A DNA stretch of 64,000 nt, taken from a virus. The position numbers were made by a program, and so were the translations under genes. The notes below the pieces were generated by a model. That model did no database searches, had not been told where the DNA came from, and saw nothing but the letters and a program-made list of their open reading frames with translations. Location: positions 1-64,000 of the IMG/VR virus record IMGVR_UViG_3300045988_165974; one strand, written 5' to 3'. Below are positions 26,667-46,936 of this stretch, piece by piece (within the stretch, counting starts at the first letter, position 1; the number at the start of each line of letters is the position of its first letter).

Positions 26667-27121
26667 TAATAGAACCCCTCAAAATCATCACCATATGAAT
26701 ACTCTATCATTTCTGCTCTAAAATAGTCATCTGCATATTCTTTTAAATTTAACAATTTACTTAACATATTTGCACTAGATAATCTATTATAATCTCCGTC
26801 TGTAATAGCTTGTTTCAACTTATCCTCACAGAAAATTTTAGGATTAAGCCAAATGGTTATCATTCCCATTACTAAAATGTTTATTTCTTTTTGACTTAAA
26901 TCTTCTTGTATATATCCACTAGAATCTTCTGTTGGAGGGACTAGATGTATTCCTTTTTCATAAGTCTTAAACTTTGCTATAGCACCTTTAAGATAAGATA
27001 ATAGCAAATCCTCAATAAATTGTTCTCCAAACTTTTCATTCATAAAGACCATAATTTCATCATCAATTTGTTTTAAAAAGTTATCATAAATTGTACTTAA
27101 TTGAGTTGACAAAATTATCAC
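26666..27121 (-). CDS. putative head-tail connector/adaptor protein
   Basis: 151-aa acidic ORF two genes after the capsid gene. Positional call. Confidence 0.35.
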   Translation of the reverse strand: MIILSTQLSTIYDNFLKQIDDEIMVFMNEKFGEQFIEDLLLSYLKGAIAKFKTYEKGIHLVPPTEDSSGYIQEDLSQKEINILVMGMITIWLNPKIFCEDKLKQAITDGDYNRLSSANMLSKLLNLKEYADDYFRAEMIEYSYGDDFEGFY

Positions 27122-27134
27122 CTTCTTTTAGGTT

Positions 27135-27686
27135 TTAAACTGCTCCAAATAAGTAAGGATTTTGTAATCTTGTTTCTAAACTTTTTCTTTTTGCATAACT
27201 ATCAAATTGTTTATTTTTATCTAAGATAACTGCTCTCTCTGCTATTCTATATACTAAGTTATCTGAAAGAGAATTTAAAGTTTTATCAAAGTCATCAACA
27301 GATGTTTTATCGTCTAAGAAAGATTCTACTCCTTCTACTGATATATCAAATTTAGAATATTCATCTTCTACACCTAAAACTTTCAGAACATCATTTTTAT
27401 CATAATCATCATATACATCAACGATTGCTATAAAAAATTTTTCTAAAAATGATTTAGACATAGCAGATAATAAATCAAGTGAAACTATTTTTGTTTCGCC
27501 TCTCTCATTTATTTCTAATATATCAGAACCTTTTGCATACACAAAATTTCCTTGACTTAAATTTTGAACTTCAACATCTATATTTTTCATATTTTTCTTT
27601 ATTTCTCTTAGTCTTGTACTTTGAGAAGGTTTTTTTACAGTTTCTTGTTGAGTAACAGTTTCTTCTTTTTTAGTTCTTGTAGCCAT
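27135..27686 (-). CDS. hypothetical protein (start trimmed to the ATG after the AAGGGAGAT RBS)
   Basis: The track ORF starts at a TTG at 27707. A better RBS, AAGGGAGATGTTAAA, precedes the ATG at 27686 (MATRTKKEE...). Confidence 0.4.
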   Translation of the reverse strand: MATRTKKEETVTQQETVKKPSQSTRLREIKKNMKNIDVEVQNLSQGNFVYAKGSDILEINERGETKIVSLDLLSAMSKSFLEKFFIAIVDVYDDYDKNDVLKVLGVEDEYSKFDISVEGVESFLDDKTSVDDFDKTLNSLSDNLVYRIAERAVILDKNKQFDSYAKRKSLETRLQNPYLFGAV

Positions 27687-27705
27687 TTTAACATCTCCCT
27701 TATTC

Positions 27706-27749
27706 AAAAAAATAAAAAGAGAGAACCTAATATGTTATAAATCCTCTCT
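27706..27749 (-). terminator. rho-independent terminator after the major capsid gene
   Basis: Minus strand reads AGAGAG-(20 nt)-CTCTCT followed by TTTTATTTTTTT, immediately after the capsid stop. Confidence 0.55.
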
Positions 27750-27756
27750 TTTTTAA

Positions 27757-28746
27757 CTATCCTATATTATATACTCCAAAGTCAGTAGCTTTTACTGCTC
27801 CTACATGTACTTTTCTTTGGAATAGGTATTCTAATTCTCTATCTAATCTAGGTAATATAGAACTATCAGTAGTAACATATCCTGGACCTTCAAATCCTAC
27901 GAATATCGGCTTAACATTAGCAGGTACTACGAATAATTTATCATTACTTAAACCAAAACCAGTTTTCTTATTAAAAGTATTTTTTAAGTCTACACATCTA
28001 TATCCTTCAAATGCTTTTAAATAACCATAATTTCTTCTATCTAATCCATCTATTTCTAATGATTCTATTCCTGGTATTTTACTTAATGCCATTTTAGTAC
28101 CATATATAGTTATATCTCCATGTCCTAATCCTGCAACTTTTTCACATAATTCAGATAAAGCATCTCTAGTTACAGTACCATTAGCTTGTAATATTGCTGG
28201 AGCTGCACTATAAGCACCTATGAAAGCACTATTTATTCTTTTTACTAATTCATGTTCCATAGATTTAGCAACTTTGTCTATCATAGCTTGGAAATTTATT
28301 CTTCCTGCCATCCATTTAGACCATTGTTCATATATTTTAACACCTAGAGGATAAGCAGTCATAGGAACTTTTCTTCCCATTAATCTTTGTCTTCTAAAGT
28401 TGTTATTATCGTCTGCTACTACTGCAACATCAAATAATTTATCATCGTCTACTTCCCATTCAATTGTGTCCCCATATTTAAGGTCTCTGTATTCACAGAA
28501 TGGTGCAAATGTTTCTCTTAATAATTCAGAAGTAGTTATTGTTAATGATTCAGATAATATTTGGAATACTTCTACATAATTTTTAGAGAATGCCCATTCG
28601 TCCCAAGTTCCTCCTACTTTTTCTAATATTTTTTCTCTTAATCTATCTTCGGCTTCTTGAGTACTAGAAAATTCAGCTTTATCTACTGTTCCATTATAGA
28701 TGTCTCTAGCTAATTTTTCCATATCTGTATATTTTACTATTGCCAT
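27757..28746 (-). CDS. putative major capsid protein
   Basis: 329-aa ORF downstream of the protease/scaffold, followed by a strong terminator. Size and position fit an HK97-type major capsid protein (MCP). No motif check was possible. Confidence 0.6.
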   Translation of the reverse strand: MAIVKYTDMEKLARDIYNGTVDKAEFSSTQEAEDRLREKILEKVGGTWDEWAFSKNYVEVFQILSESLTITTSELLRETFAPFCEYRDLKYGDTIEWEVDDDKLFDVAVVADDNNNFRRQRLMGRKVPMTAYPLGVKIYEQWSKWMAGRINFQAMIDKVAKSMEHELVKRINSAFIGAYSAAPAILQANGTVTRDALSELCEKVAGLGHGDITIYGTKMALSKIPGIESLEIDGLDRRNYGYLKAFEGYRCVDLKNTFNKKTGFGLSNDKLFVVPANVKPIFVGFEGPGYVTTDSSILPRLDRELEYLFQRKVHVGAVKATDFGVYNIG

Positions 28747-28749
28747 TGA

Positions 28750-28950
28750 ATTTCCGTTACTTAAAACTTATAAAAAGTTCTAAATTTATTTTTCTTTTCA
28801 CTCTATCTTATATTGCCAAAGCTACTTTAGTAATTGATAGTCCAAGAACGTAAATTCCCCATCAACGAGTGGGTACATATTATAAATATCTTTTAATGTG
28901 ATAGTCCATAATTTCTTAAATTAAGACTTGCATTTAAATCTCTATCTATT
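28750..28950 (-). ncRNA. candidate TnpB omega/reRNA (3' end of tnpB plus downstream 146 nt)
   Basis: By analogy with IS200/IS605 TnpB loci, the guide RNA overlaps the 3' end of tnpB and the right end. The region contains hairpin-prone GTACCCACTCGTTGATGGGGAATTTAC. Boundaries are not determined. Confidence 0.35.
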
Positions 28951-30020
28951 TCTAATCCACAACTACATTTATAAACTCTATCTGATAATTTTAAGTCTTT
29001 CTTAATGTTTCCACAACTACTACATATTTTACTTGATGGATAATATTTATCAACTTGTATGAATTTAATATCATTCCATTCGCATTTATATTTCATTTGT
29101 CTTATAAATTCACATAGGTTCTGTTGTTGAATAGCTTTAGATAAATGTTTATTTTTCATCATATTAATTATACTTAAATCTTCCATTACTACCTTACATG
29201 GTTTGGTTTTCACTATTTGAGTAGTAACTTTATGAGTATAATCAAGTCTTATATTTTTTAATTTACGATAAAGTTTCTTGAGTCTAATTTCTAACTTTTT
29301 AATATTATTAGTTTTTAAGTAACGTCCTCCTTTCTTATTTTTTAAATATTTTTTACTTATTTGTCTTTGTAACCTTTTTAACTTCTTTTCTAGTTTTTTA
29401 ACAGTATGAGTTTTATTTATATTTTTAAACTTCATATTATTACTAAGTATTGCTAAATCTTTTACTCCTAAATCAATTCCTAATACTTTTTGTGTAAGTT
29501 CGTCTACTTCTTTTTCTACTTCTAATCCAAATGTTAAAATCCAACATCTGCCATTGTAATTTACATACGGATTTTTAAAAGAATTTATTTTGGTAAAATC
29601 AATTTTATAGTTAGATTTATATTTTACTTTTCCTATTTTTTCTAAATTAACTACATTCTTTTCATAAAATTTTATTTTATCATATCTACTATAAAAACTT
29701 AATTTTGTTTTTTTCTTACTTTTAAATTTAGGTAGATTAGATTTCTGTTTGTAAAAATTTGAATATGCTTTATCTAAATTCCTTAAAGACTCTTTCAAAG
29801 TCGCATTTGATATTTCATATAACCATTGGTTTTCTTTTTTATAAATAGTTAACATTCTCCCTAATTCTGTACAAGAATATTTCTTTTTCTCATTTTTATA
29901 TAATTCATTGTTGAGATTTAATGCCCAATTATAGACATATCTTTGACATCCAATATGCTTATAAAATAAAGTTTCTTGCTCTTTTGTTGGATATAATCTA
30001 ATTTTGAATCCTTTTATCAT
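28893..30020 (-). CDS. tnpB: TnpB (IS200/IS605-family OrfB, RuvC-like RNA-guided nuclease)
   Basis: N-terminal FKIRLYPTKEQ is typical of OrfB. RuvC triad candidates are GIDLGVKD, VVMEDL and EIDRDLNASLN. Zinc finger is CSSCG...CSCG. 375 aa. Confidence 0.85.
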   Translation of the reverse strand: MIKGFKIRLYPTKEQETLFYKHIGCQRYVYNWALNLNNELYKNEKKKYSCTELGRMLTIYKKENQWLYEISNATLKESLRNLDKAYSNFYKQKSNLPKFKSKKKTKLSFYSRYDKIKFYEKNVVNLEKIGKVKYKSNYKIDFTKINSFKNPYVNYNGRCWILTFGLEVEKEVDELTQKVLGIDLGVKDLAILSNNMKFKNINKTHTVKKLEKKLKRLQRQISKKYLKNKKGGRYLKTNNIKKLEIRLKKLYRKLKNIRLDYTHKVTTQIVKTKPCKVVMEDLSIINMMKNKHLSKAIQQQNLCEFIRQMKYKCEWNDIKFIQVDKYYPSSKICSSCGNIKKDLKLSDRVYKCSCGLEIDRDLNASLNLRNYGLSH

Positions 30021-30044
30021 TATTTTTCACCTCTTTCTTAATTT

Positions 30045-30098
30045 AATTATAACACATTCAATCTCTACTTGCAACTACTTTATTTATGTGTTATAATT
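30045..30098. promoter_or_regulatory. 13-bp perfect inverted repeat with divergent TATAAT boxes between tnpB and the RHH gene
   Basis: AATTATAACACAT (30045-30057) and ATGTGTTATAATT (30086-30098). Each arm contains TTATAAT reading outward toward tnpB or toward the RHH ORF. Confidence 0.5.
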
Positions 30099-30115
30099 AA
30101 TTTGAGGTGATATAA

Positions 30116-30286
30116 ATGAATAATAAAAAAGATAAATATGGATTAAAAAACAGAACTAGAATATCTAATGCTATTGATACTGAAACTTGGAAAAGATTAC
30201 AACAATATTCAAAAGAAACTATGATACCAATATCTAAATTGTTAGATAAAGCAATATCTGACTTTTTAGAATCTGCTAAAAAATAG
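30116..30286 (+). CDS. small ribbon-helix-helix (CopG/Arc-like) protein, divergent from tnpB
   Basis: Own translation: MNNKKDKYGLKNRTRISNAIDTETWKRLQQYSKETMIPISKLLDKAISDFLESAKK (56 aa, below the track cutoff). RBS is GAGGTGATATAA-ATG. Shows a beta-strand then two helices. Confidence 0.55.
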   Translation: MNNKKDKYGLKNRTRISNAIDTETWKRLQQYSKETMIPISKLLDKAISDFLESAKK

Positions 30287-30409
30287 TTTTTATAAAATTC
30301 AAATAGCTTATAAAAGTCAACATATGTTTATATTTTTTATAAGTTATTTGAAACCATTTAATATCTCCTTTAATTTAATTAAAAATAGCAGTCAAAAGAC
30401 TGCTTTATC

Positions 30410-30877
30410 TTATAAGAAATCTATTAATATTGAATCTTGTCTGTCGAATAAATCAACATCTATTTCTGCAACTATTCCTATTGCATCTTCTAATCCTTCT
30501 GCTTTTGCATATTTACCTAAATTAACTGTATCAGGTTTTACATAGTCTCCAACTGCTAATCCCTCTGGGAAGAATTTTTTAGCTATTGTGTATTCATCAA
30601 AGTTATCAACTGGTAATACTCTTCCTGGGTATCCTTTTTCTAAACAGTAATCAGAATCATCTAATCTTTCGTCATACATTAATGTAGAACAGTCAACTAT
30701 TGCTATTCTATCTCCAGCAGCATATTGTCCAATTTTATAACATTCTCTTTCACCTTTTGCATAGCCTTTTATTCCAACTATCATACCATTTTCTAATGGA
30801 GTGTTTTCTTCATGTAAAGCACTTAATGGTTTTGGATAAGGCACTCTATCTTTTCTTAATAATGCATATTTTCCCAT
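30410..30877 (-). CDS. hypothetical head protein (possible decoration protein)
   Basis: 155-aa ORF between the protease/scaffold and the capsid gene (before the TnpB insertion), followed by the hairpin AGCAGTC-TTTT-GACTGC + T-run. Confidence 0.35.
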   Translation of the reverse strand: MGKYALLRKDRVPYPKPLSALHEENTPLENGMIVGIKGYAKGERECYKIGQYAAGDRIAIVDCSTLMYDERLDDSDYCLEKGYPGRVLPVDNFDEYTIAKKFFPEGLAVGDYVKPDTVNLGKYAKAEGLEDAIGIVAEIDVDLFDRQDSILIDFL

Positions 30878-30889
30878 GTATCTTTCCTC

Positions 30890-32353
30890 CTAATCTAAAA
30901 TATCTCCGTATGGTCTTTTTCTTACAGGCTCATCTGTATGGTCTGCAACTTTTACACTTTTTGGCTCTGAACTTTTTTGTTTAGCTCTATTTTCTATAGC
31001 TTTTTTACCTTCTAAAGCAAATAATTCTTTTTCAAATAAATTCATTTCTAATTCTCCAGATAAAACTTTTTCTTTTAATTCTTTGATTTCATCTTCTTCT
31101 AAAGAGAATTTTTCTAACATATTTGCAACATTTTCTTTAAGTTTTTCATTATTTACTTCTTTTTCAAAAGCCTTAAGTCTTTCCAACTCGGAATTTAATT
31201 CTGATAATTTATTATCTTTTTCTTCTGTATCTTTTGAGAATTCTACTATTTTTTCATCTAATTCTTTTATTTTTTCATCCTTTTCAGATGCAGAAGTTTC
31301 TAATGTTTTGATTGACTCATTTAATTCATTTATTTTTTCAAAAGCAACTTTTTCTAACTCATTTTCAAAAGGTTTTTCTAATGAGAAATTAACTTGAGAT
31401 TCTCCCTCATTCATTTCTCTCCATTCTCTTATATAAGCTTTTTTATTATCAAAATCTAAAACAATTTTGTCTCCATCTAATGAATAAGGAACACCAAAAC
31501 AAGAATAGTTAGATGCACTTTCAACAACAACGACATTTTCTCCAGGAATTATATCTCTGTAATAAAATTCTCTTTGTTGGTATGTTTCTCCCCAATAGTT
31601 AGTTTGTTCAACTGTTCTATTAGCAAGGGCATCATATATTTGGTCTTGAAAGTTTTGAACTGATAAGCCAAACATTTCTATTGTTTTTTTATTTTCAGGC
31701 AACTTAATACCCTCCTTTTCTTTATTTAATTCATTGCAAATTAACTGTAATTCTTTTTTGTAAAACTCTAAATTACCTTTAGCATAAGTTGTTATTGTAG
31801 CACCTTCTATTCCTGGTTCTACATCATCTCCAAGAATAGTAATTCCTTGGAATATAAAAGAAGTAATATCTCCTTCGTCATTCTTTTCCTGAATAATGAT
31901 TTCCATACTTACACTTTTTTCTTGAGCTTCTAATAGTAAATCTAATCCCTCATTTGCATAAGCTTTCCAAATTTTTCCCGTTGCACATAAATAAGTTTTT
32001 TCAGTTTCTTCATCTGTTTCATAAGTTATTTCTGTACTTTCAGGAATTACTCCAATTGCTCTTTCTTCATAAAAAGTTCTTACTTCTAATCCTTCAGAGG
32101 TTCTTGACAGTTTTAGATATATTTTATGTCCTCCAAAATCAATAGCCTCGTCATCTTCGTCTCTTTCTATGTATCCCACTATTGGAATATTTTTTAAACT
32201 TTCTTTAGCATTTTCAATTGCATCTTCGGTAATATTAAGACCCTTGCTATTTTCCCCAGCATGGACAATTTGAAGTTTTACATTTTGGAATCTTGAATCT
32301 TCATCTTCATTTGAGAAAAAAGTTAATTTACAATTTATATTTTTTGTTTCCAA
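30890..32353 (-). CDS. putative prohead protease / scaffold fusion protein
   Basis: The N-terminal ~200 aa are globular. The C-terminal half is highly charged coiled coil (EKDEKIKELDEKIVEFSKDTEEKDNKLSELNSELERLKAFEKEV...), which is scaffold-like. Position is between portal and capsid. Confidence 0.5.
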   Translation of the reverse strand: METKNINCKLTFFSNEDEDSRFQNVKLQIVHAGENSKGLNITEDAIENAKESLKNIPIVGYIERDEDDEAIDFGGHKIYLKLSRTSEGLEVRTFYEERAIGVIPESTEITYETDEETEKTYLCATGKIWKAYANEGLDLLLEAQEKSVSMEIIIQEKNDEGDITSFIFQGITILGDDVEPGIEGATITTYAKGNLEFYKKELQLICNELNKEKEGIKLPENKKTIEMFGLSVQNFQDQIYDALANRTVEQTNYWGETYQQREFYYRDIIPGENVVVVESASNYSCFGVPYSLDGDKIVLDFDNKKAYIREWREMNEGESQVNFSLEKPFENELEKVAFEKINELNESIKTLETSASEKDEKIKELDEKIVEFSKDTEEKDNKLSELNSELERLKAFEKEVNNEKLKENVANMLEKFSLEEDEIKELKEKVLSGELEMNLFEKELFALEGKKAIENRAKQKSSEPKSVKVADHTDEPVRKRPYGDILD

Positions 32354-32381
32354 ATAGCACCCTCCTTTCTTCGGAGTTTAT

Positions 32382-32591
32382 CTATTTAATATTTAATAGT
32401 ATTTCCTTTATTTCCTCGTTTGACACTCCTATGAGAATATAAAGATATACTATTAAAAAGAAAATATTTACTAATGGTGTGAATATAATTAAACCTACTG
32501 TCAATAGAGTTGCACATATGTTAGATTTGCTTTTCATCGGTATTTCATTTTCACTAGCAACATATCCTATTTTTAAACAAGTTGCAATCAC
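32382..32591 (-). CDS. small membrane protein
   Basis: 69 aa with two hydrophobic helices (ATLLTVGLIIFTPLVNIFFLIVYLYILIGV). Confidence 0.4.
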   Translation of the reverse strand: MIATCLKIGYVASENEIPMKSKSNICATLLTVGLIIFTPLVNIFFLIVYLYILIGVSNEEIKEILLNIK

Positions 32592-32646
32592 ACTTATTTG
32601 TTGTTAGAATACATATCATTGCATATAATTTTCCCATATCATTCTC

Positions 32647-41912: not shown

Positions 41913-41986
41913 TGGTAGCAGAAAAAGGATTCGAACCTTTAGTTTTGGATAATGAGTCCAATGTGTTACCATTACACTATTCTGCG
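41913..41986 (-). tRNA. tRNA-Met/Ile2 (anticodon CAT), CCA encoded
   Basis: Manual cloverleaf: CGCAGAA-TA-GTGT..ACAC-A-TTGGA-CTCATTA-TCCAA-AACT-AAAGG-TTCGAAT-CCTTT-TTCTGCT-A-CCA. The 1:72 pair is a C:U mismatch. Confidence 0.7.
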
Positions 41987-42007
41987 ATAATATCTTTATA
42001 AAAAAAG

Positions 42008-42030
42008 AGAAGGAGTTACCAGTTCCTTCT
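42008..42030 (-). terminator. hairpin terminator after tRNA-Asp
   Basis: AGAGAAGGA-(9 nt)-TCCTTCTCT followed on the minus strand by T7. Adjacent to an inverted copy of the island box. Confidence 0.5.
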
Positions 42031-42031
42031 C

Positions 42032-42048
42032 TTGTATAACAGCAATTT
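42032..42048 (+). repeat. island box, copy 8 (opposite orientation)
   Basis: The plus strand reads TGTATAACAGCAATTTT directly 3' of the hairpin at 42008-42030. Confidence 0.5.
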
Positions 42049-42102
42049 TTTAGATAATACTATTTACTTATTTAGCAACTTCAACTCAACTAAATAAGCG
42101 AA

Positions 42103-42177
42103 TGGCGACCTACAAGGGAATCGAACCCTTATCTTTGGATAGACAGTCCAACATAATAACCTTTATACGAGTAAGCC
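42103..42177 (-). tRNA. tRNA-Asp (anticodon GTC), CCA encoded
   Basis: Acceptor GGCTTAC/GTAGGTC, anticodon arm TTGGA-CTGTCTA-TCCAA, T arm AAGGG-TTCGATT-CCCTT, then G-CCA. The D arm is weak. Confidence 0.65.
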
Positions 42178-42193
42178 ATAACTGGGATTGAAC

Positions 42194-42330
42194 TGGAAAC
42201 AGTTGGATTTGAACCAACACCCTCTTCTTGACCTATAAGATTTAATTTCTTCTTTTAAATATATTGCTGTATGTGTCCCATAATCCCACTAGACACATAA
42301 TTATTTGTGCTACCATTACACCATGTTTCC
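42194..42330 (-). ncRNA. tRNA-like gene with ~75-nt insert in the anticodon/variable region (box copy 7 inside)
   Basis: Acceptor GGAAACA/TGTTTCC, D arm GTGT-AATGGTA-GCAC, T arm GTTGG-TTCAAAT-CCAAC. Between the D and T arms are 90 nt including the hairpin ATGTGTC-(14)-GACACAT + ACAGCAAT. No CCA is encoded. Confidence 0.55.
42261..42279 (-). repeat. island box, copy 7
   Basis: The minus strand reads GGGACACATACAGCAATAT. Confidence 0.6.
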
Positions 42331-42453
42331 ATATTCGAGAGAGGAAATTATTCCTCTCTGTTTGTATATCTTGGAGGTTTTAAAATGATGAATAATAATT
42401 ACAATACACTTATTTATATTTTCAAAATGTTTTGTGGTTGAAAAATTAAATTA

Positions 42454-42473
42454 ATATTGCTGTATGTGTATTT
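42454..42473 (-). repeat. island box, copy 6
   Basis: The minus strand reads AAATACACATACAGCAATAT, starting at the stop codon of the Ro60-like gene. Confidence 0.6.
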
Positions 42474-42476
42474 ATA

Positions 42477-43991
42477 TTATACAGTTATGCAAGAATATCT
42501 TTCTTGATTTACTGCTTCCATCATTAATTCATACCCTGTTTTACCTGTTAATATTATTTCAAATGTAGATGGTGAAAATCCACTTACATATGAAATTCTT
42601 CCACTTCCTAGCATTGGAATATTATTTTGTCTTGCATCGACATTCCAATATATTAAATGTGGTATTTCATATCCATGTGATTGCCATTTTTTAGCTATTG
42701 ATTCCATTAATGTTTCATGTGAGCTATATTTTTGTTCACTTCTACTACTTCTCCAGCTCCAACAATTGAATTCATCAACTCCATTGTCAAATTCCATATC
42801 TGAAATTATAGCAATATTTTGTGGCAAATCTTCTTGAGATAAATTATTTTTTAATGCAGTATTTAATACTAAATCAAATACAGATTCAATATTTGTATTT
42901 TCACATAAATTAGTATCGTATATTCTTCTAACTTTATCTACAAAGTCAATTCCTTCAACTTCTACTAATCTAGCCTTTCTACTAAAACTTATGTAATGGT
43001 CTTTAAATGGACCTTTATTTCTTTCTGCACAATAAATTCCAAGTGAAATTGCTACATTTATTGGAGTCCCCCACATAGAACCTGATGTATCTACAACAGG
43101 TAATAAACTACAAGATTTCCCATTAAAGTAATCTTTTAAATTATCCCAATATTTATTTACAACATTTCTTTCAGTAGTTGAAGTTGAGAAACTATGTCTT
43201 AGTCCAATAGCTTTTTCTACGACTTCATAAGGATATAATGTAGCTGCATTTACAGTAGTCTTATCACTATTCATAAAAGCACTATATCTTTCTTCACAAT
43301 GTCTTTCAAAAGCTTTTCTATATTTAAGTCCTGCTTTACTTGGAAGTTTATCAAATTCTATTTCATGCCAATTATTAGAACTCATTTGTGTTTCAACTAA
43401 TCTTATATGATTTCTTAATTTCACTAATGTTTTTCTATATTTTTTAGCATTCATATTCAACTTTTTAGCAAAATATTTAGCTTTAAGTTTAGTATTAACA
43501 CTACTTGCTCCAAGTGAAGGCATCCACTTAGCTAATAAAGATATTGGTTTATTATTGTTCATATCTTTAAGGTCTGTTTCTAATTGATTTTTAACAATAG
43601 ATAAAACTTCTTTTTCGAACTTAGAACCTTTATATCCTAATTCTAATAAATCGTCCCATCTCCCAAACTCTGCAAAATAAATTAAATTCTTTTTTAATGC
43701 TTTAGAATTATTTTTTTCTAACCATTTTGTTATAACTCTAAATAATCTTCTTTCACCTTGTCCTCCTCGGACATCTCTAAAATAAAATAATAATTTCATT
43801 GATATTAAAGGATTTTCTTTATATGCTTTTTTAAATTGTAAAATTACATCTTCTTCACTACGATTTCTCATAGCTCCCCCAAAAGCGAAAAAATCTAAAC
43901 AATTACTAAAAGTAGTAACATGAGTAGTAGCTCCGTTTTCAGTTAAAGTATAATTTTCTTCTTCTTTTAAATTTCTTAAAAGTTTATTCAT
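42477..43991 (-). CDS. Ro60/TROVE-like RNA-binding protein with C-terminal vWA domain (DUF2828-type architecture)
   Basis: The N-terminus TLTENGATTHVTTFSNCLDFFAFGGAMR...LFYFRDVRGGQGERRLF has the TROVE/DUF2828-like pattern. The C-terminal vWA carries the MIDAS motif LLPVVDTSGSMWG. 504 aa. Confidence 0.6.
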   Translation of the reverse strand: MNKLLRNLKEEENYTLTENGATTHVTTFSNCLDFFAFGGAMRNRSEEDVILQFKKAYKENPLISMKLLFYFRDVRGGQGERRLFRVITKWLEKNNSKALKKNLIYFAEFGRWDDLLELGYKGSKFEKEVLSIVKNQLETDLKDMNNNKPISLLAKWMPSLGASSVNTKLKAKYFAKKLNMNAKKYRKTLVKLRNHIRLVETQMSSNNWHEIEFDKLPSKAGLKYRKAFERHCEERYSAFMNSDKTTVNAATLYPYEVVEKAIGLRHSFSTSTTERNVVNKYWDNLKDYFNGKSCSLLPVVDTSGSMWGTPINVAISLGIYCAERNKGPFKDHYISFSRKARLVEVEGIDFVDKVRRIYDTNLCENTNIESVFDLVLNTALKNNLSQEDLPQNIAIISDMEFDNGVDEFNCWSWRSSRSEQKYSSHETLMESIAKKWQSHGYEIPHLIYWNVDARQNNIPMLGSGRISYVSGFSPSTFEIILTGKTGYELMMEAVNQERYSCITV

Positions 43992-44058
43992 ATCATCTCT
44001 CCAATCAAGATACCTTTGTGTTTCCCTTTTGCTGATTGTATCTTTATATTATTTTTTA

Positions 44059-44132
44059 TGGCAGACTAAAATGGATTTGAACCATTATCTTCAAGATTCG
44101 GAGTCTCGATGTTTTACTTAAACCATTAGCCT
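44059..44132 (-). tRNA. tRNA-Arg (anticodon CCG), CCA encoded
   Basis: Acceptor AGGCTAA/TTAGTCT, D arm GTTT..AAAC, anticodon arm CGAGA-CTCCGAA-TCTTG, T arm AATGG-TTCAAAT-CCATT, then G-CCA. Confidence 0.7.
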
Positions 44133-44453
44133 ATAAAAATTTCTAGCTAGAAAATAATTAAAATTAATTAGATTAAAATTCATTATACTTGGTTAACTCC
44201 CTGATTTCTTTTAGTTGTGTATCAGGGGAAAACAACAAGTAATTACTATATTAACTTAATAGGATATTATACTTCCGACATTCTTATTAATCGCTATCGG
44301 ATGTGCGATTTATTTTGTTTGCAAACATCTTTAGTGTAGTTCCCGTAAAAAACTTACTTGCTATAAAAAAAACTTTCAGAAATCACTACACATGACAGAT
44401 TATGTAGGTGGGGTCTGTCTCCATACACCATACAAACGAGATGATTTTTTCTT

Positions 44454-44519
44454 TGGACTTAATCGGAATTGAACCGATAACATCATGCCTGATAATTTTC
44501 CCCATTAAACTATAAGTCC
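44454..44519 (-). ncRNA. tRNA-like gene with truncated anticodon arm (66 nt)
   Basis: Acceptor GGACTTA/TAAGTCC and T arm ATCGG-TTCAATT-CCGAT are perfect. The anticodon arm is reduced to ATCA-GGCA-TGAT. No CCA is encoded. Confidence 0.45.
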
Positions 44520-44525
44520 ATATAA

Positions 44526-44597
44526 TGACCTATGAGGGAATTGAACCCTCGCCCTCACCGTGAAAGGGTGATGTCTTAGCCACTTGACTAATAGGTC
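44526..44597 (-). tRNA. tRNA-Glu (anticodon TTC)
   Basis: GACCTAT-TA-GTC..GAC-A-TCACC-CTTTCAC-GGTGA-GGGC-GAGGG-TTCAATT-CCCTC-ATAGGTC-A. All stems are canonical. Confidence 0.85.
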
Positions 44598-44602
44598 ATG
44601 CT

Positions 44603-44678
44603 TGGTCTAAGTAGAGGGACTCGAACCCCCAGTCTCCACATCCCAAATGTGGCGGTCTACCAAATTAACCTATACCTA
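44603..44678 (-). tRNA. tRNA-Pro (anticodon TGG), CCA encoded
   Basis: CTAGGTA-TA-GGTT..GACC-G-CCACA-TTTGGGA-TGTGG-AGACT-GGGGG-TTCGAGT-CCCTC-TACTTAG-A-CCA. Confidence 0.85.
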
Positions 44679-44777
44679 GATATTAGAGTCTAGCATCAAA
44701 ATACTAGGCTTAATCATAACAATAATTTTTAATCAAGACTCTATTTAATACTCGTTTTTAACAGAAACGTAATTAAT

Positions 44778-44797
44778 AAATTGCTGTTAGAGTCTTT
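44778..44797 (-). repeat. island box, copy 9 (55 nt downstream of the iscB stop)
   Basis: The minus strand reads AAAGACTCTAACAGCAATTT. Confidence 0.55.
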
Positions 44798-44851
44798 TTA
44801 TAAATATTTAGCCAGAAAACCCATTCCCTTTAGGTGATGGGATGAATGGCG

Positions 44852-46114
44852 TTAAATTGCTACTGTCTGTACCATTTGTGATGTTCTTGCAGTGACTCGC
44901 TTACAGTTACTTAACTTTGGCGTTTTAAAACCTCTTGGCATTGCTGAAAAAACAATCTTATTCCCATCAATGTCCATAAGAATTGCATATCCTGTAAACA
45001 TTCTTCCCTTAATAAAGTATTCCTTGCCAAAGTATTTTACTTTGTCATATTTTCTAAAACCGTATATTTTACCAGTTGTAATAGGCTGTTCTGAACGAAC
45101 ACCTTTTGTTTTTCGAAAATCACCATCAGAAACACATTTCTTTTTGTAAAGATTACTCCTTACATAAAAAGCATTCCCTTGTGTTGATATAGTACAAGCA
45201 TCATAATAATGTTTTTTGTCTATCCCTAAATGTAAACGATTAGTCTTTGTCACATATCCAAAAGTTTCAATAGCATTTGGATAGAATCTGAAAAGCTGCT
45301 TACGGATAGAATTCATTTGCGTAGCATATTTAAGATTACCCTTAACTTTACCGCTTAATTTAGGGTTAATCTTCTCACTATGTAAATCTTTATGACAGGT
45401 GTGACATAAAGTAATTAAATTACTTTCTTCGTCAGAACCACCTTGACTACGAAATACAATATGATGAACTTCTAATTTGCTATCCTTATGCTTGCCTTTA
45501 CAATATTGACAAGTATAGTTATCTCTATTAAGTACCATTGCTTTTGTATTTTCAAATCCATAGTTAACACCTTTCTGATACCCCCAATGTCTAACCTTGG
45601 AATTTGCAAGTATTGGATTTTTCATTAAATGCATATCAAACTTCCCTGTTTCAAATACTAAAGTTGTAATTGGTAAAATAGATTTAATATATTCTATTTC
45701 CTTTACATGACTATGAAGTTTGCTCTGCATTGTAGGACTAAATCTATCCTTTCTAATAGAATTTGCACGATTTAACCATCTTGCTTTTCTATAACGAGTT
45801 TTACGATTTCGTCTGTTTCTACGATACTTTGCTCTTTGTGTCATTTTGTTAGTAATGTCGTTTCTTACAACAATTTCCGACATATAAACAATATTTCCTT
45901 TTTCATCTGATACTGCTGTTCCTATTGTTCCACTACCTGTATCTACACCTAAAATTAAATCTTGAGTGTAGTTTGTACTGTCATACAATAGTTTAATTGT
46001 AAACGGACAACGACTAACAACTTTAGCTTTTCTATCTTTTAACAGATGTCTGATTTTCCCATACCTATTCGTAGGCATAAGTGGTTGTCCATCTTTGTTT
46101 AATACATATACCAT
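44852..46114 (-). CDS. iscB: IscB (OMEGA-family RNA-guided RuvC/HNH nuclease)
   Basis: PLMP domain (KDGQPLMPT). RuvC-I ILGVDTGSGTIG. Arg-rich bridge helix RAKYRRNRRNRKTRYRKARW. HNH CQYCKG...LEVHHIV...NLITLCHTCHKDLH. RuvC-III KHYYDAC. 420 aa. Confidence 0.9.
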   Translation of the reverse strand: MVYVLNKDGQPLMPTNRYGKIRHLLKDRKAKVVSRCPFTIKLLYDSTNYTQDLILGVDTGSGTIGTAVSDEKGNIVYMSEIVVRNDITNKMTQRAKYRRNRRNRKTRYRKARWLNRANSIRKDRFSPTMQSKLHSHVKEIEYIKSILPITTLVFETGKFDMHLMKNPILANSKVRHWGYQKGVNYGFENTKAMVLNRDNYTCQYCKGKHKDSKLEVHHIVFRSQGGSDEESNLITLCHTCHKDLHSEKINPKLSGKVKGNLKYATQMNSIRKQLFRFYPNAIETFGYVTKTNRLHLGIDKKHYYDACTISTQGNAFYVRSNLYKKKCVSDGDFRKTKGVRSEQPITTGKIYGFRKYDKVKYFGKEYFIKGRMFTGYAILMDIDGNKIVFSAMPRGFKTPKLSNCKRVTARTSQMVQTVAI

Positions 46115-46117
46115 AAA

Positions 46118-46435
46118 CAGATATTCCTTTCATTAAATTAAATTAATAACTCAGCTACACAAGTAACTGTTATGCGTACTATACTGTACTGTTACCATAC
46201 AGTTGTTTCGACTTCAACTCGACAATGATATAAAGGCTTTTTACATATACATTACAAGGCTGTTCTTACTCTGACCTAACTTAAATGTATACGATAGAGC
46301 AATGGTCTGTTGCGTCAACCAAAGGTATCATGACTTAAATATCGTAGCCATCATTTCTGTGGCTTAGTCTGGTGAACCATTTAACAGAAGCCCATAAGCT
46401 TTAGCTTGTGGGTAGTTCACTTAATTATTCCTGGA
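46118..46435 (-). ncRNA. candidate IscB omega RNA (structured 5' leader of iscB)
   Basis: 320 nt ORF-free region directly upstream of iscB. It has nested stems, e.g. GTGAAC...GTTCAC enclosing CCCACAAGCT-AA-AGCTTATGGG. Upstream is a possible promoter, TTGAAA-N16-TAATTA. IscB loci are known to encode their guide RNA here. Confidence 0.6.
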
Positions 46436-46497
46436 AGGAGATTTTTCAATTACAATGCACAAATATTATTAATAAAATCCTTTTTTTATCATAAACA

Positions 46498-46517
46498 TAA
46501 TTGCTGTATGTGCATTT
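46498..46517 (-). repeat. island box, copy 5 (~65 nt upstream of the candidate omega RNA)
   Basis: The minus strand reads AAATGCACATACAGCAATTA. Confidence 0.6.
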
Positions 46518-46653
46518 AATTATATTAACTTTAAGAAGGTACTTATCAAGACACTAAACATTATAAATATGAAACTTCCTAGAATTGTTCAATTTATTTT
46601 GAGGATTTGAACCTCTAAAGCACTTGTTTATTGACTTATTTACCTATTTGAAT

Positions 46654-46673
46654 TAATTGCTGTAAGTGTCTTT
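46654..46673 (-). repeat. island box, copy 4
   Basis: The minus strand reads AAAGACACTTACAGCAATTA, 23 nt after the preceding tRNA-like gene. A T-arm-like GAGG-TTCAAAT-CCTC lies 40 nt downstream. Confidence 0.6.
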
Positions 46674-46695
46674 TGAATGTATATTTTTAGAACAG

Positions 46696-46811
46696 GACGG
46701 GAAGTAGGAGTCGAATCTACAACCTACGGCTTAAATGGCAAATTAAAATGCTGTTAGTGTATCCCTTCTATACACATATTACGTTGCTCTACCCGTTGAG
46801 CTATTCCCGTC
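46696..46811 (-). ncRNA. tRNA-like gene with ~45-nt insert in the anticodon arm (box copy 3 inside)
   Basis: Acceptor ACGGGAA/TTCCCGT, D arm GCTC-AACGGGTA-GAGC, T arm GTAGA-TTCGACT-CCTAC (one A:C mismatch). Only 3 bp of the anticodon stem remain (ACG/CGT). The insert holds the hairpin GTGTAT-(7)-ATACAC + TAACAGCAT. Confidence 0.5.
46745..46765 (-). repeat. island box, copy 3
   Basis: The minus strand reads GGGATACACTAACAGCATTTT. Confidence 0.55.
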
Positions 46812-46818
46812 ATAATGT

Positions 46819-46936
46819 TGCCGAAGAATAGATTTGAACTATTATCCTATAGCTTCCCTGTTTGAAATTGCTGCTTATGTATTTATCAATACATCTATTT
46901 ATTGGCTATTGCTCCAACCATTTGAGCTACTTCGGC
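46819..46936 (-). ncRNA. tRNA-like gene with perfect cloverleaf stems but a 51-nt anticodon loop (box copy 2 inside)
   Basis: GCCGAAG-TA-GCTC-AAATGGTTG-GAGC-A-ATAGC-[51 nt, 46854-46904]-GCTAT-AGGAT-AATAG-TTCAAAT-CTATT-CTTCGGC-A. The loop contains the hairpin ATGTATT-GAT-AAATACAT + AAGCAGCAAT. Confidence 0.6.
46865..46884 (-). repeat. island box, copy 2
   Basis: The minus strand reads AAATACATAAGCAGCAATTT. Confidence 0.55.

Follow-up and report, generated by a model that had tools for sequence, protein, structure and literature searches.

The TnpB of ISFba1, an IS607-family protein of solved structure (8IAZ), is guided by a right-end RNA (reRNA) derived from RAGATH-18. The transposon-adjacent motifs (TAMs) of 23 RAGATH-18-guided IS607 TnpBs have been determined, and they are 5'-AGGAG in 18/22 strains and GAGGG in the rest (PMC11061315). 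A second precedent is the Clostridium botulinum IStron, an IS607 element with a serine TnpA, a TnpB and an Arc-like open reading frame (ORF) (PMC10690162). The third comes from IS605-family transposons, in which Arc, a small ribbon-helix-helix (RHH) protein, binds a bidirectional transposon promoter and represses tnpB, also in elements that hold arc and tnpB only (Moon, Zedaveinyte, Wiegand and Sternberg, bioRxiv 2026, 10.64898/2026.09.24.754181); Arc-like ORFs beside TnpB and homing endonucleases had been noted earlier by the same laboratory (PMC10690162). Here we analyze 64,000 nt of viral DNA (the window; positions 1 to 64,000 of IMG/VR record IMGVR_UViG_3300045988_165974), in which a tnpB gene with a divergent RHH gene lies upstream of the major capsid gene. 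We consider it probable that this is a non-autonomous IS607 element, composed of a left end, the Arc-like RHH gene, tnpB, a RAGATH-18-type RNA and a right end, which recently entered the capsid AGGAG|G in a single lineage of a ~138-kb phage that is common in the human gut. IS607 TnpB with a RAGATH-18 RNA and an AGGAG TAM has been known since 2024 (PMC11061315), and Arc repression is described in the 2026 preprint. New here is the natural setting: three adjacent ribosome-binding sites (RBSs) of a common gut phage exist as both occupied and empty alleles, together with a candidate guide-only mini-element and a polymorphism in the target seed.

TnpB and family assignment

The tnpB gene (28893..30020, minus strand) encodes 375 aa with the Pfam domains HTH_OrfB_IS605, OrfB_IS605 and Cas12f1-like_TNB and a CxxC...CxC zinc finger. 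Its top match among solved structures was 8IAZ, over the full length (E 4e-72); ISDra2 gave 7e-44. D183, E280 and D361, which align with the catalytic D, E and D of ISFba1, and the zinc residues C333, C336, C352 and C354 were invariant in an alignment of 27 TnpB homologues. The original prediction of an intact TnpB was thereby borne out, with no RuvC substitutions. The marks of TldR proteins, lost RuvC residues or a C-terminal truncation, were not seen: the protein is full length and keeps D-E-D. The predicted nuclease residues are intact, hence this is no TldR-type nuclease-dead regulator. Compared with the copies on two related contigs, L004 and L005, tnpB gave ratios of nonsynonymous to synonymous substitution (dN/dS) of 0.13 and 0.19, spanning dS 0.25–0.9, and the RHH gene gave 0.14 against L004, over few sites. 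By these ratios, both TnpB and the RHH protein are under purifying selection.

In a scan of GTDB genomes, most relatives came from Clostridia, Peptostreptococcaceae and Bacillaceae. Many of the relatives (43–55% identity) have an upstream ORF with a MerR helix-turn-helix and a Resolvase domain, the IS607 serine-recombinase TnpA, which overlaps the start of tnpB; the transposases beside relatives were all of this MerR-resolvase type. A hidden Markov model (HMM) of the relatives' serine-recombinase TnpA gave no match in the 64-kb window (no Y1 profile was run) and nothing in the viral relatives of at least 51% identity (L028–L051). Nothing found contradicts the original remark that the window lacks a Y1 transposase, an enzyme that would in any case be of the wrong type for the IS607 family. 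Because the MerR-resolvase TnpA is absent by HMM yet present in relatives, the element would be a non-autonomous IS607 derivative. At the three insertion sites considered below, the natural flanking motif is AGGAG, which is the published ISFba1-type TAM; the empty sites read AGGAG|GAAATTC... (A), AGGAG|GAAAGATAC... (B) and AGGAG|GGTGCT... (C). Taken together, the TnpB clade, the RAGATH-18 RNA, the AGGAG TAM and the relatives' TnpA place the element in the IS607 family and not in IS200/IS605 or IS1341, where it had at first been filed with a missing Y1 TnpA. Annotators should be aware that "OrfB_IS605" matches in phages can be IS607-type.

The likeness to ISFba1 covers the domain order, the D-E-D residues, the full-length match, a putative RAGATH-18-type RNA that lies downstream of tnpB and does not overlap it, a flank identical to the experimental TAM, and an origin in Firmicutes and the human gut. 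Unlike ISFba1, the window element has no TnpA and carries an opposite-strand RHH gene in its place; its RNA is shorter (~137 nt from stop codon to right end, compared with ~187 nt), and it lies in a phage structural operon. A guide RNA that overlaps the 3' end of tnpB is a property of IS200/IS605 elements and was not found in this one. The IStron offers a further parallel through phage c-st, where an RHH ORF lies upstream of a 55%-identical TnpB and the right end, ...TTATAAGTTTTATGCAACGG, is similar; the G-rich TAM with a GG core has a probable counterpart in the window, and the last bases of the scaffold repeat the end of the TAM. They differ in that the window element has no group I intron, uses AGGAG rather than TGGG, is inserted between genes at an RBS and not in a coding sequence, and has an RHH protein of a different subfamily. 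In Clostridium phage c-st itself (L208, AP008983; 2270–3000), a long structured left region that looks group I intron-like precedes the 55%-identical TnpB, with an unannotated opposite-strand RHH ORF of ~50 aa that belongs to another subfamily; this phage probably harbors a C. botulinum IStron.

Occupied and empty insertion sites

Site A, directly before the capsid gene, was compared in 22 contigs of this phage (L108–L124, L126, L211–L213 and the window's own 138-kb contig). It is occupied in 1/22, the window's own contig. In 21/21 others it is empty, and the 155-aa gene upstream is followed directly by the capsid gene; the phage backbone is ~99.5% identical among occupied and empty contigs. 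This comparison with insert-less phages, which had been proposed at the outset, yielded both the ends of the element and its AGGAG TAM. The insert is 1610 bp on the minus strand (28756..30365), with its left end at 30365 and its right end, ...TTATAAGTTTTAAGTAAC, stopping at 28756; a shared G leaves a boundary ambiguity of 1 nt at each end. The sequence AAAGGA|GGAAATTCAATGG is unbroken in the empty-site contigs L112, L123, L124 and L212. Empty site A reads TTAAAGGAGGAAA(AC/TT)CAATGGCAATAG, and the window reads TTAAAGGA + 1610 bp + GGAAATTCAATGGCAATAG. The flanks are unchanged relative to the empty relatives, and no target duplication was found at site A. The capsid Shine-Dalgarno sequence is split by the insert (AGGAG|GAAATTCAATGG): its AGGAG (30365..30369, minus strand) now stands left of the element as the putative TAM, and both verified empty sites read AGGAG|G. 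The left end does begin with 12 nt (GATATTAAATGG; 30353–30365) that resemble the right flank (GAAATTCAATGG; 28743–28755) at 10/12 positions, and L034 has GGGTTTTA at both its left end and its right flank. A target-site duplication was rejected as the reading of this likeness, since L004 has no such similarity and a fresh duplication should be exact.

The exact TnpB was found on 3 contigs only; for the identical capsid protein the index lists 419 blocks of public assemblies, most of them from the human gut metagenome. L002, a 138-kb ENA contig, is identical to the window across the element. A near-identity DNA search with 27000–32500 gave no match among INPHARED phages and, in IMG/VR, only contig 3300008482_000121, the window's own. 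Two alleles are found beside the site, ACC (17 contig records) and TTC (4 records). The TTC allele, which adjoins the insert in the window, occurs in the empty phages L112, L123, L124 and L212 (L124 and L212 are the same contig), and for this reason the two flank differences from L004 were rejected as post-insertion mutations or repair scars. In every empty relative with TTC, the hairpin 30 nt upstream has an AAAA loop; in the window TTC stands with the majority TTTT loop instead (30391–30394 and 28749–28750). The combination is suggestive of a haplotype or recombination junction that coincides with the insertion point. By comparison with the backbone, the insertion is very recent.

Sister copies occupy neighboring sites. 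The RHH-TnpB copy in L004 is 93% identical over the element, with dS 0.25, set against a backbone divergence of ~0.5%. It sits one gene upstream at site B, between the YonD_N and 155-aa genes (TTAGGA|GGAAAGATACATGG). Site B is the RBS of the 155-aa gene; in the window it is unoccupied (AGGAG|GAAAGATACATGG..., 30867..30891, minus strand) and the L004 guide matches it perfectly. It was uninterrupted in the window and in 19/19 contigs examined there (L108–L126), so that the window and L004 each provide the other's empty site. Site C, the RBS of the YonD_N gene, is likewise unoccupied in the window (AGGAG|GGTGCTATTTGG..., 32341..32366, minus strand). In L004 a mini-element of ~420 bp (L004 3753–4177) is found there, at AAAGGAGG|GTGCTATTTGG. 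It has no ORF, IS607-like ends with the right end ...GGCAACGG, and a RAGATH-18 RNA at L004 4063–4138 that scores 68.6 bits, above gathering. It is guide-only by sequence and might be used in trans by a resident TnpB.

More distant copies follow the same pattern. Eight phage contigs of ~118–147 kb (L005–L012), which belong to another group of large gut phages, have a 75%-identical TnpB without an RHH gene between two sigma-factor genes, at the RBS of a 175-aa gene, and ~20 other RBSs are occupied in other large phages. (In L005–L012 a 21-aa stretch just upstream is weakly like the RHH C terminus, with E 0.097, and is possibly a deletion remnant.) The copies at other RBSs and the presence or absence of the insert among near-identical phages agree with the mobile element that was one of the options originally raised. 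Three occupied sites in near-identical phages, copies far more diverged than their hosts and the many occupied RBSs elsewhere speak for recent and repeated invasion; the element is mobile, and its domestication is not supported.

The right-end flank began with G in 21/21 family loci and with GG in 19/21, and 19/21 insertions lay 2–14 nt upstream of the start of a co-oriented ORF (at least 40 codons). As a background, 19% of AGGAG and 41% of AGGAGG sites in the window precede a start codon. A special RBS-targeting mechanism was considered and rejected; the TAM, together with survival of only the intergenic insertions, largely explains the excess. Because the AGGAG TAM is the Shine-Dalgarno sequence, the elements would land almost only before start codons in the AT-rich phages of Firmicutes. 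The gene that follows has the same orientation as the element and loses its RBS to it. In the literature we found no paper that links the identity of an AGGAG TAM with the Shine-Dalgarno sequence to the loss of an RBS by the downstream gene.

Guide RNA, predicted target and RHH protein

The predicted guide-RNA scaffold (omegaRNA or reRNA; 28755..28892, minus strand) has a RAGATH-18-type core at 28790–28848, which starts 44 nt past the tnpB stop without overlapping the ORF, and a terminal hairpin, AACUU-UUUAU-AAGUU, followed by UUUAAGUAACG. Across 19 relatives, nine base pairs of the scaffold show compensatory changes (e.g., CCCA:UGGG vs GUGU:ACAC vs GUGG:CCAC). The right end, ...UUAUAAGUUUUAAGUAAC(G), is conserved and is followed by unrelated sequence at each family locus. 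TnpB elements in general take as guide whatever sequence adjoins the right end on its 3' side. The predicted 20-nt guide at this position is GAAAUUCAAUGGCAAUAGUA (28735..28754, minus strand), which comprises the spacer, the start codon and the first capsid codons. Its sole perfect match in the window is its own site, which is preceded by AACG and not by AGGAG; because AACG replaces the TAM, the occupied genome is predicted to be immune. A comparison of the guide with related phages, as suggested in the original prediction, gave a perfect match to the empty TTC allele. By this match an empty genome with the TTC allele should be the cleavage target, and homing into empty alleles is plausible.

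These features can be assembled into a proposed mechanism. The element would owe its mobilization in trans to the serine-recombinase TnpA of some autonomous IS607 element, carried by the host or by another phage. Transcripts from the element promoter or the late operon would span tnpB plus scaffold and continue into the start of the capsid gene, so that the guide of ~20 nt would equal the capsid spacer and start. TnpB and its RNA would then cut AGGAG + GAAATTCAATGG... (candidate target GAAATTCAATGGCAATAGTA) in the unoccupied allele, and AACG would spare the occupied copy. Where both genotypes share a cell, the break would be repaired on the occupied template, with the element copied in as a result (homing), or the rival would be destroyed. 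An RHH dimer on the shared −35/operator would hold tnpB and its own gene low, and late upstream read-through would bypass it.

The 56-aa Arc-like ORF that had been noticed on the opposite strand is indeed an RHH gene (30116..30286, plus strand; Pfam RHH_3, E 2e-16), divergent from tnpB. It travels inside the element: it lies within the limits of the insert and has moved with it to site B in L004, where it is 96% identical. The earlier concern that the ORF might not be conserved is answered by its presence in that copy, in 7/~24 close phage-borne relatives and in Bacillus phage LY4; the rest of the relatives have a short left end and an unregulated promoter. A search for RHH homologues returned 76, of 51–94 aa (most 51–59 aa), with TnpB or GIY-YIG nucleases as partners. 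One, named from Clostridium kluyveri, adjoins a 394-aa TnpB on metagenome contigs. Among the GIY-YIG cases, an RHH gene stands ahead of a 148-aa GIY-YIG gene in gut-phage replication modules (L013–L017), and in Enterococcus faecium prophages (L018–L022, 3147–4639) a close homologue is divergent from a GIY-YIG gene between pieces of the large terminase (a TerL_ATPase fragment and TerL).

Between the two genes are 95 bp (30021..30115) with promoters arranged back to back. One palindromic −35 element, TTGCAA (30069–30074), serves both strands; TGTTATAAT lies 17 bp from it on each strand, the −10 boxes are at 30046–30051 and 30092–30097, and GAGGTGA ribosome-binding sites are mirrored on the two sides. 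Both sites agree with 10/12 consensus positions and have a TG extension, and are promoter-like by consensus only. The 95-bp region and the perfect 13-bp inverted repeat described in it are real, and the repeat proved larger: its arms (30037–30057 and 30086–30106) match at 90% over 21 nt, of which 15 nt are perfect by our reading, and each carries TGTTATAAT. As a dedicated operator, the role first suggested for them, the arms were rejected, because they are two mirrored extended −10 boxes and the conserved part is the central TTGCAA core. Relatives that bear an RHH gene share this core, CTACTTGCAACTAC (CTAC-TTGCAA-CTAC), which is unchanged in the isolated Bacillus phage vB_BceS_LY4; there the same divergent pair is annotated only as "transposase" and "ribbon-helix-helix domain protein". 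A TTGCAA-centered sequence is also present upstream of the GIY-YIG-associated RHH homologues and not of the TnpB-associated P0184 locus (L023). We regard CTAC-TTGCAA-CTAC as the better candidate for the RHH operator, and 30021..30115 is by analogy the probable operator region.

Dedicated repression by the RHH protein, one of the original suggestions, fits the divergent architecture and the Arc preprint by analogy. As in the Arc transposons, a small RHH gene lies in a transposon divergent from tnpB, the bidirectional promoter has inverted motifs over −35/−10, elements with only arc and tnpB exist, and RHH homologues are also found beside homing endonucleases; the likeness is one of architecture and description. 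The window protein differs from the published Arc in its predicted DNA-reading residues and its Pfam family (RHH_3), and the published work was done in Escherichia coli and does not discuss phage-resident elements. In vB_BceS_LY4 (L207, ON741189; 5240–5400) we also saw three copies of the terminal motif (TTTATAG...GGCAACG) in tandem after the right end, each followed by a different ~18–40 nt. Their appearance is that of guide units in a short array, or of right-end remnants nested in one another.

Alternative explanations and surrounding genes

Several observations weigh against the reading of the locus as an active IS607 element that homes. Residues with which ISFba1 reads its TAM are changed in our reading of the 8IAZ alignment (N121/N122 to R112/Y113, K80 to A73), and since they are not kept, the identity of the TAM is taken from the natural junctions only. 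The IS607 model expects a GG core dinucleotide at both junctions (PMC10690162; PMC13565253). The right junction conforms (AAC-GG), and the left is AGGA-GA in the window and AGGA-AA in L004; L005, L034, L030, L050 and the L004 mini-element have GG on the left. Over its outermost 16 nt, the left end is only ~50% conserved between the window and L004 and deviates from the family consensus AACAGTTAAA, and this sub-lineage may be a poor TnpA substrate. The Rfam RAGATH-18 model matched 28790–28848 over its full length with a score of 36 bits (E 2e-4), short of the gathering threshold of 44.9 (the L004 copy scored 39.8), and the fold of the single scaffold sequence is unremarkable (z −1.6). The guide has two mismatches to the commoner ACC allele, both TAM-proximal, in the seed, and ISFba1 is reported as very mismatch-sensitive (PMC11061315). 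There is no co-conversion tract around site A, the rarity of the element speaks against efficient homing, and the predicted DNA-reading strand of the RHH protein is unlike the Asn5/Asn7/Thr9 of the tested Arc.

The strongest rival is domestication: TnpB would serve the phage as an anti-competitor weapon or gene drive, kept by selection for destroying or converting insert-less co-infecting relatives. We think this unlikely. Guide and TAM fit the empty allele of the same phage and the L004 guide fits site B of the window perfectly, but any TnpB guide fits its own empty site, so the match is no proof of recruitment. The purifying selection on both genes and the pairing of RHH-family proteins with GIY-YIG homing endonucleases in phages and prophages would also suit domestication. 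So would the raised density of single-nucleotide polymorphisms in L004, which has 12 in the ~1 kb right of site B where our estimate gives ~4.5 as expected, a weak excess; with no tract at site A, co-conversion was rejected as proof of homing. The distribution points the other way: the 21/21 other contigs that are empty at site A, the sister copies elsewhere and the TnpB on 3 contigs only leave a position that is not fixed, with sites A, B and C varying among near-identical phages, and the lack of co-conversion at site A adds to this. The suggestion of a phage-domesticated nuclease is not supported. There is a functional analogy to free-standing homing endonucleases of phages (T4 SegF/SegB, GIY-YIG, HNH). 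As with these, a nuclease gene lies between conserved genes and is polymorphic in near-identical phages, the predicted target is the empty allele, and the RHH family is shared with GIY-YIG cassettes in Enterococcus prophages and gut phages. The window system differs from them in using an RNA guide and a TAM for recognition instead of a protein, in protecting itself through loss of the TAM, and in having transposon ends by which new sites can be reached; homing here is predicted from sequence.

An inert relic, a chance insertion with dead parts that is tolerated until lost, appears less probable still. Rarity, the degenerate non-consensus left end with GA in place of GG at its junction, the disrupted capsid Shine-Dalgarno sequence and the RAGATH-18 score under threshold are what such a relic might show. 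It sits badly with intact ORFs under dN/dS of 0.13–0.19 over dS 0.25–0.9, with the retention of all catalytic and zinc residues, with consensus-grade promoters and compensatory changes in the RNA, and with an insertion that is very recent relative to the backbone.

We give little weight to the idea that the RHH protein and TnpB form a toxin-antitoxin-like or inhibitor pair in which the RHH protein blocks TnpB or its RNA. An RHH-TnpB association with proposed inhibition at the protein level has been described (PMC10691335), and a proposed interaction with TnpB-omegaRNA is mentioned in the Arc preprint (10.64898/2026.09.24.754181). However, the archaeal RHH/MazE-TnpB clade has an Asp-to-His change in RuvC-III and an RHH gene upstream in the same, co-directional operon; in the window D361 is kept and the genes are divergent. 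Close RHH homologues that pair with GIY-YIG nucleases under a TTGCAA-centered upstream region also point to recognition of DNA and not of TnpB. Transposition of an IS200/IS605 (IS1341-type) element in single-stranded form by a Y1 HUH transposase is scarcely credible: the Pfam domain names taken from IS605, the lack of a target duplication, the subterminal hairpins at both ends and junctions that fit simple insertion 3' of a short motif with no mismatch needed are outweighed by nearest characterized TnpBs that are IS607 (ISFba1, and the phage c-st copy at 55% identity with a similar right end, ...GCAACGG), by a guide RNA of the IS607-specific RAGATH-18 type that leaves the ORF free, and by relatives' transposases that are all MerR-resolvase.

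Beyond the non-autonomous IS607 element itself, a broader conjecture, which we put forward tentatively and would not bet on, is that IS607 TnpB elements act as RNA-guided homing drives between co-infecting gut phages. Their guides would be drawn from the RBSs and starts of essential structural genes, the window and L004 elements would target each other's empty sites, and the additional guide of the mini-element, acting in trans, would make a dispersed proto-array. The two-base ACC/TTC seed polymorphism could then be a resistance allele, and the RHH protein would silence the nuclease until late read-through. The locus makes "non-restorative" RNA-guided homing between phages, which a 2026 review lists and which has so far been discussed in principle only (PMC13565253), directly testable.

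The genes in this part of the window are all on the minus strand, in the order YonD_N-domain gene (30890–32353), 155-aa gene (30410–30877), hairpin, element, capsid gene (27757..28746). The capsid gene encodes 329 aa (Pfam YonB), with ~28–34% identity to major capsid proteins annotated in large siphoviruses of Clostridioides, Bacillus and Lactococcus, and its ATG is 146 nt from the tnpB stop, as originally stated. Of the claimed insertion between a head gene and the capsid gene, the insertion and the capsid gene stood; for the 155-aa "head gene" no family match was found. Separated by the element from its Shine-Dalgarno sequence, the capsid gene is now preceded by ...AAGUAACGGAAAUUCAAUG. It is probably left with the weak RBS ACGGAAA, at a translational cost, and because of this probable cost the loss of AGGAGG may explain the rarity of the element. 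A scan of the tnpB-capsid interval found no recognizable G+C-rich terminator after tnpB; because the element is also co-oriented with the operon, late transcripts can reach the capsid gene, a point that had been raised as a question. Capsid mRNA would be supplied by read-through plus the element's own tnpB promoter, and late read-through would make TnpB and guide RNA regardless of the RHH protein, antisense to the RHH gene.

Two hairpins lie upstream of tnpB in this operon. The left-end subterminal hairpin (30298..30352), just past the RHH stop, has 18-nt arms that are 94% complementary and folds as RNA at −14.3 kcal/mol on the minus strand and −17.3 on the plus strand (z −4.2 and −5.2). It may be a weak bidirectional terminator, and its AT-rich stem with a U-rich stretch could attenuate incoming transcripts. 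A native terminator-like hairpin of the phage (30387..30404, minus strand), between the 155-aa gene and the capsid RBS, is outside the element and is kept in empty relatives. Near 32600 (minus strand), the window has one extra A (ACAACAAATAAG, compared with ACAACAATAAG) in an 84-aa gene of its relatives, which produces a frameshift or early stop; the gene is not called on the window's 138-kb contig.

Elsewhere in the window is a second OMEGA system (44852–46420, minus strand). A 420-aa ORF with RRXRR and HNH domains (IscB) is immediately preceded by a HEARO RNA (RF02033; 103.9 bits, above gathering) at 46207–46420, and the system is embedded in a tRNA cluster. The exact IscB protein was found on the window's own lineage only, a look-up that is uninformative on frequency. 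The cluster (41916–46936, minus strand) contains eight tRNA matches, of which two are long, 42194–42330 (137 nt) and 46819–46936 (118 nt); their length suggests that they carry inserts or introns.

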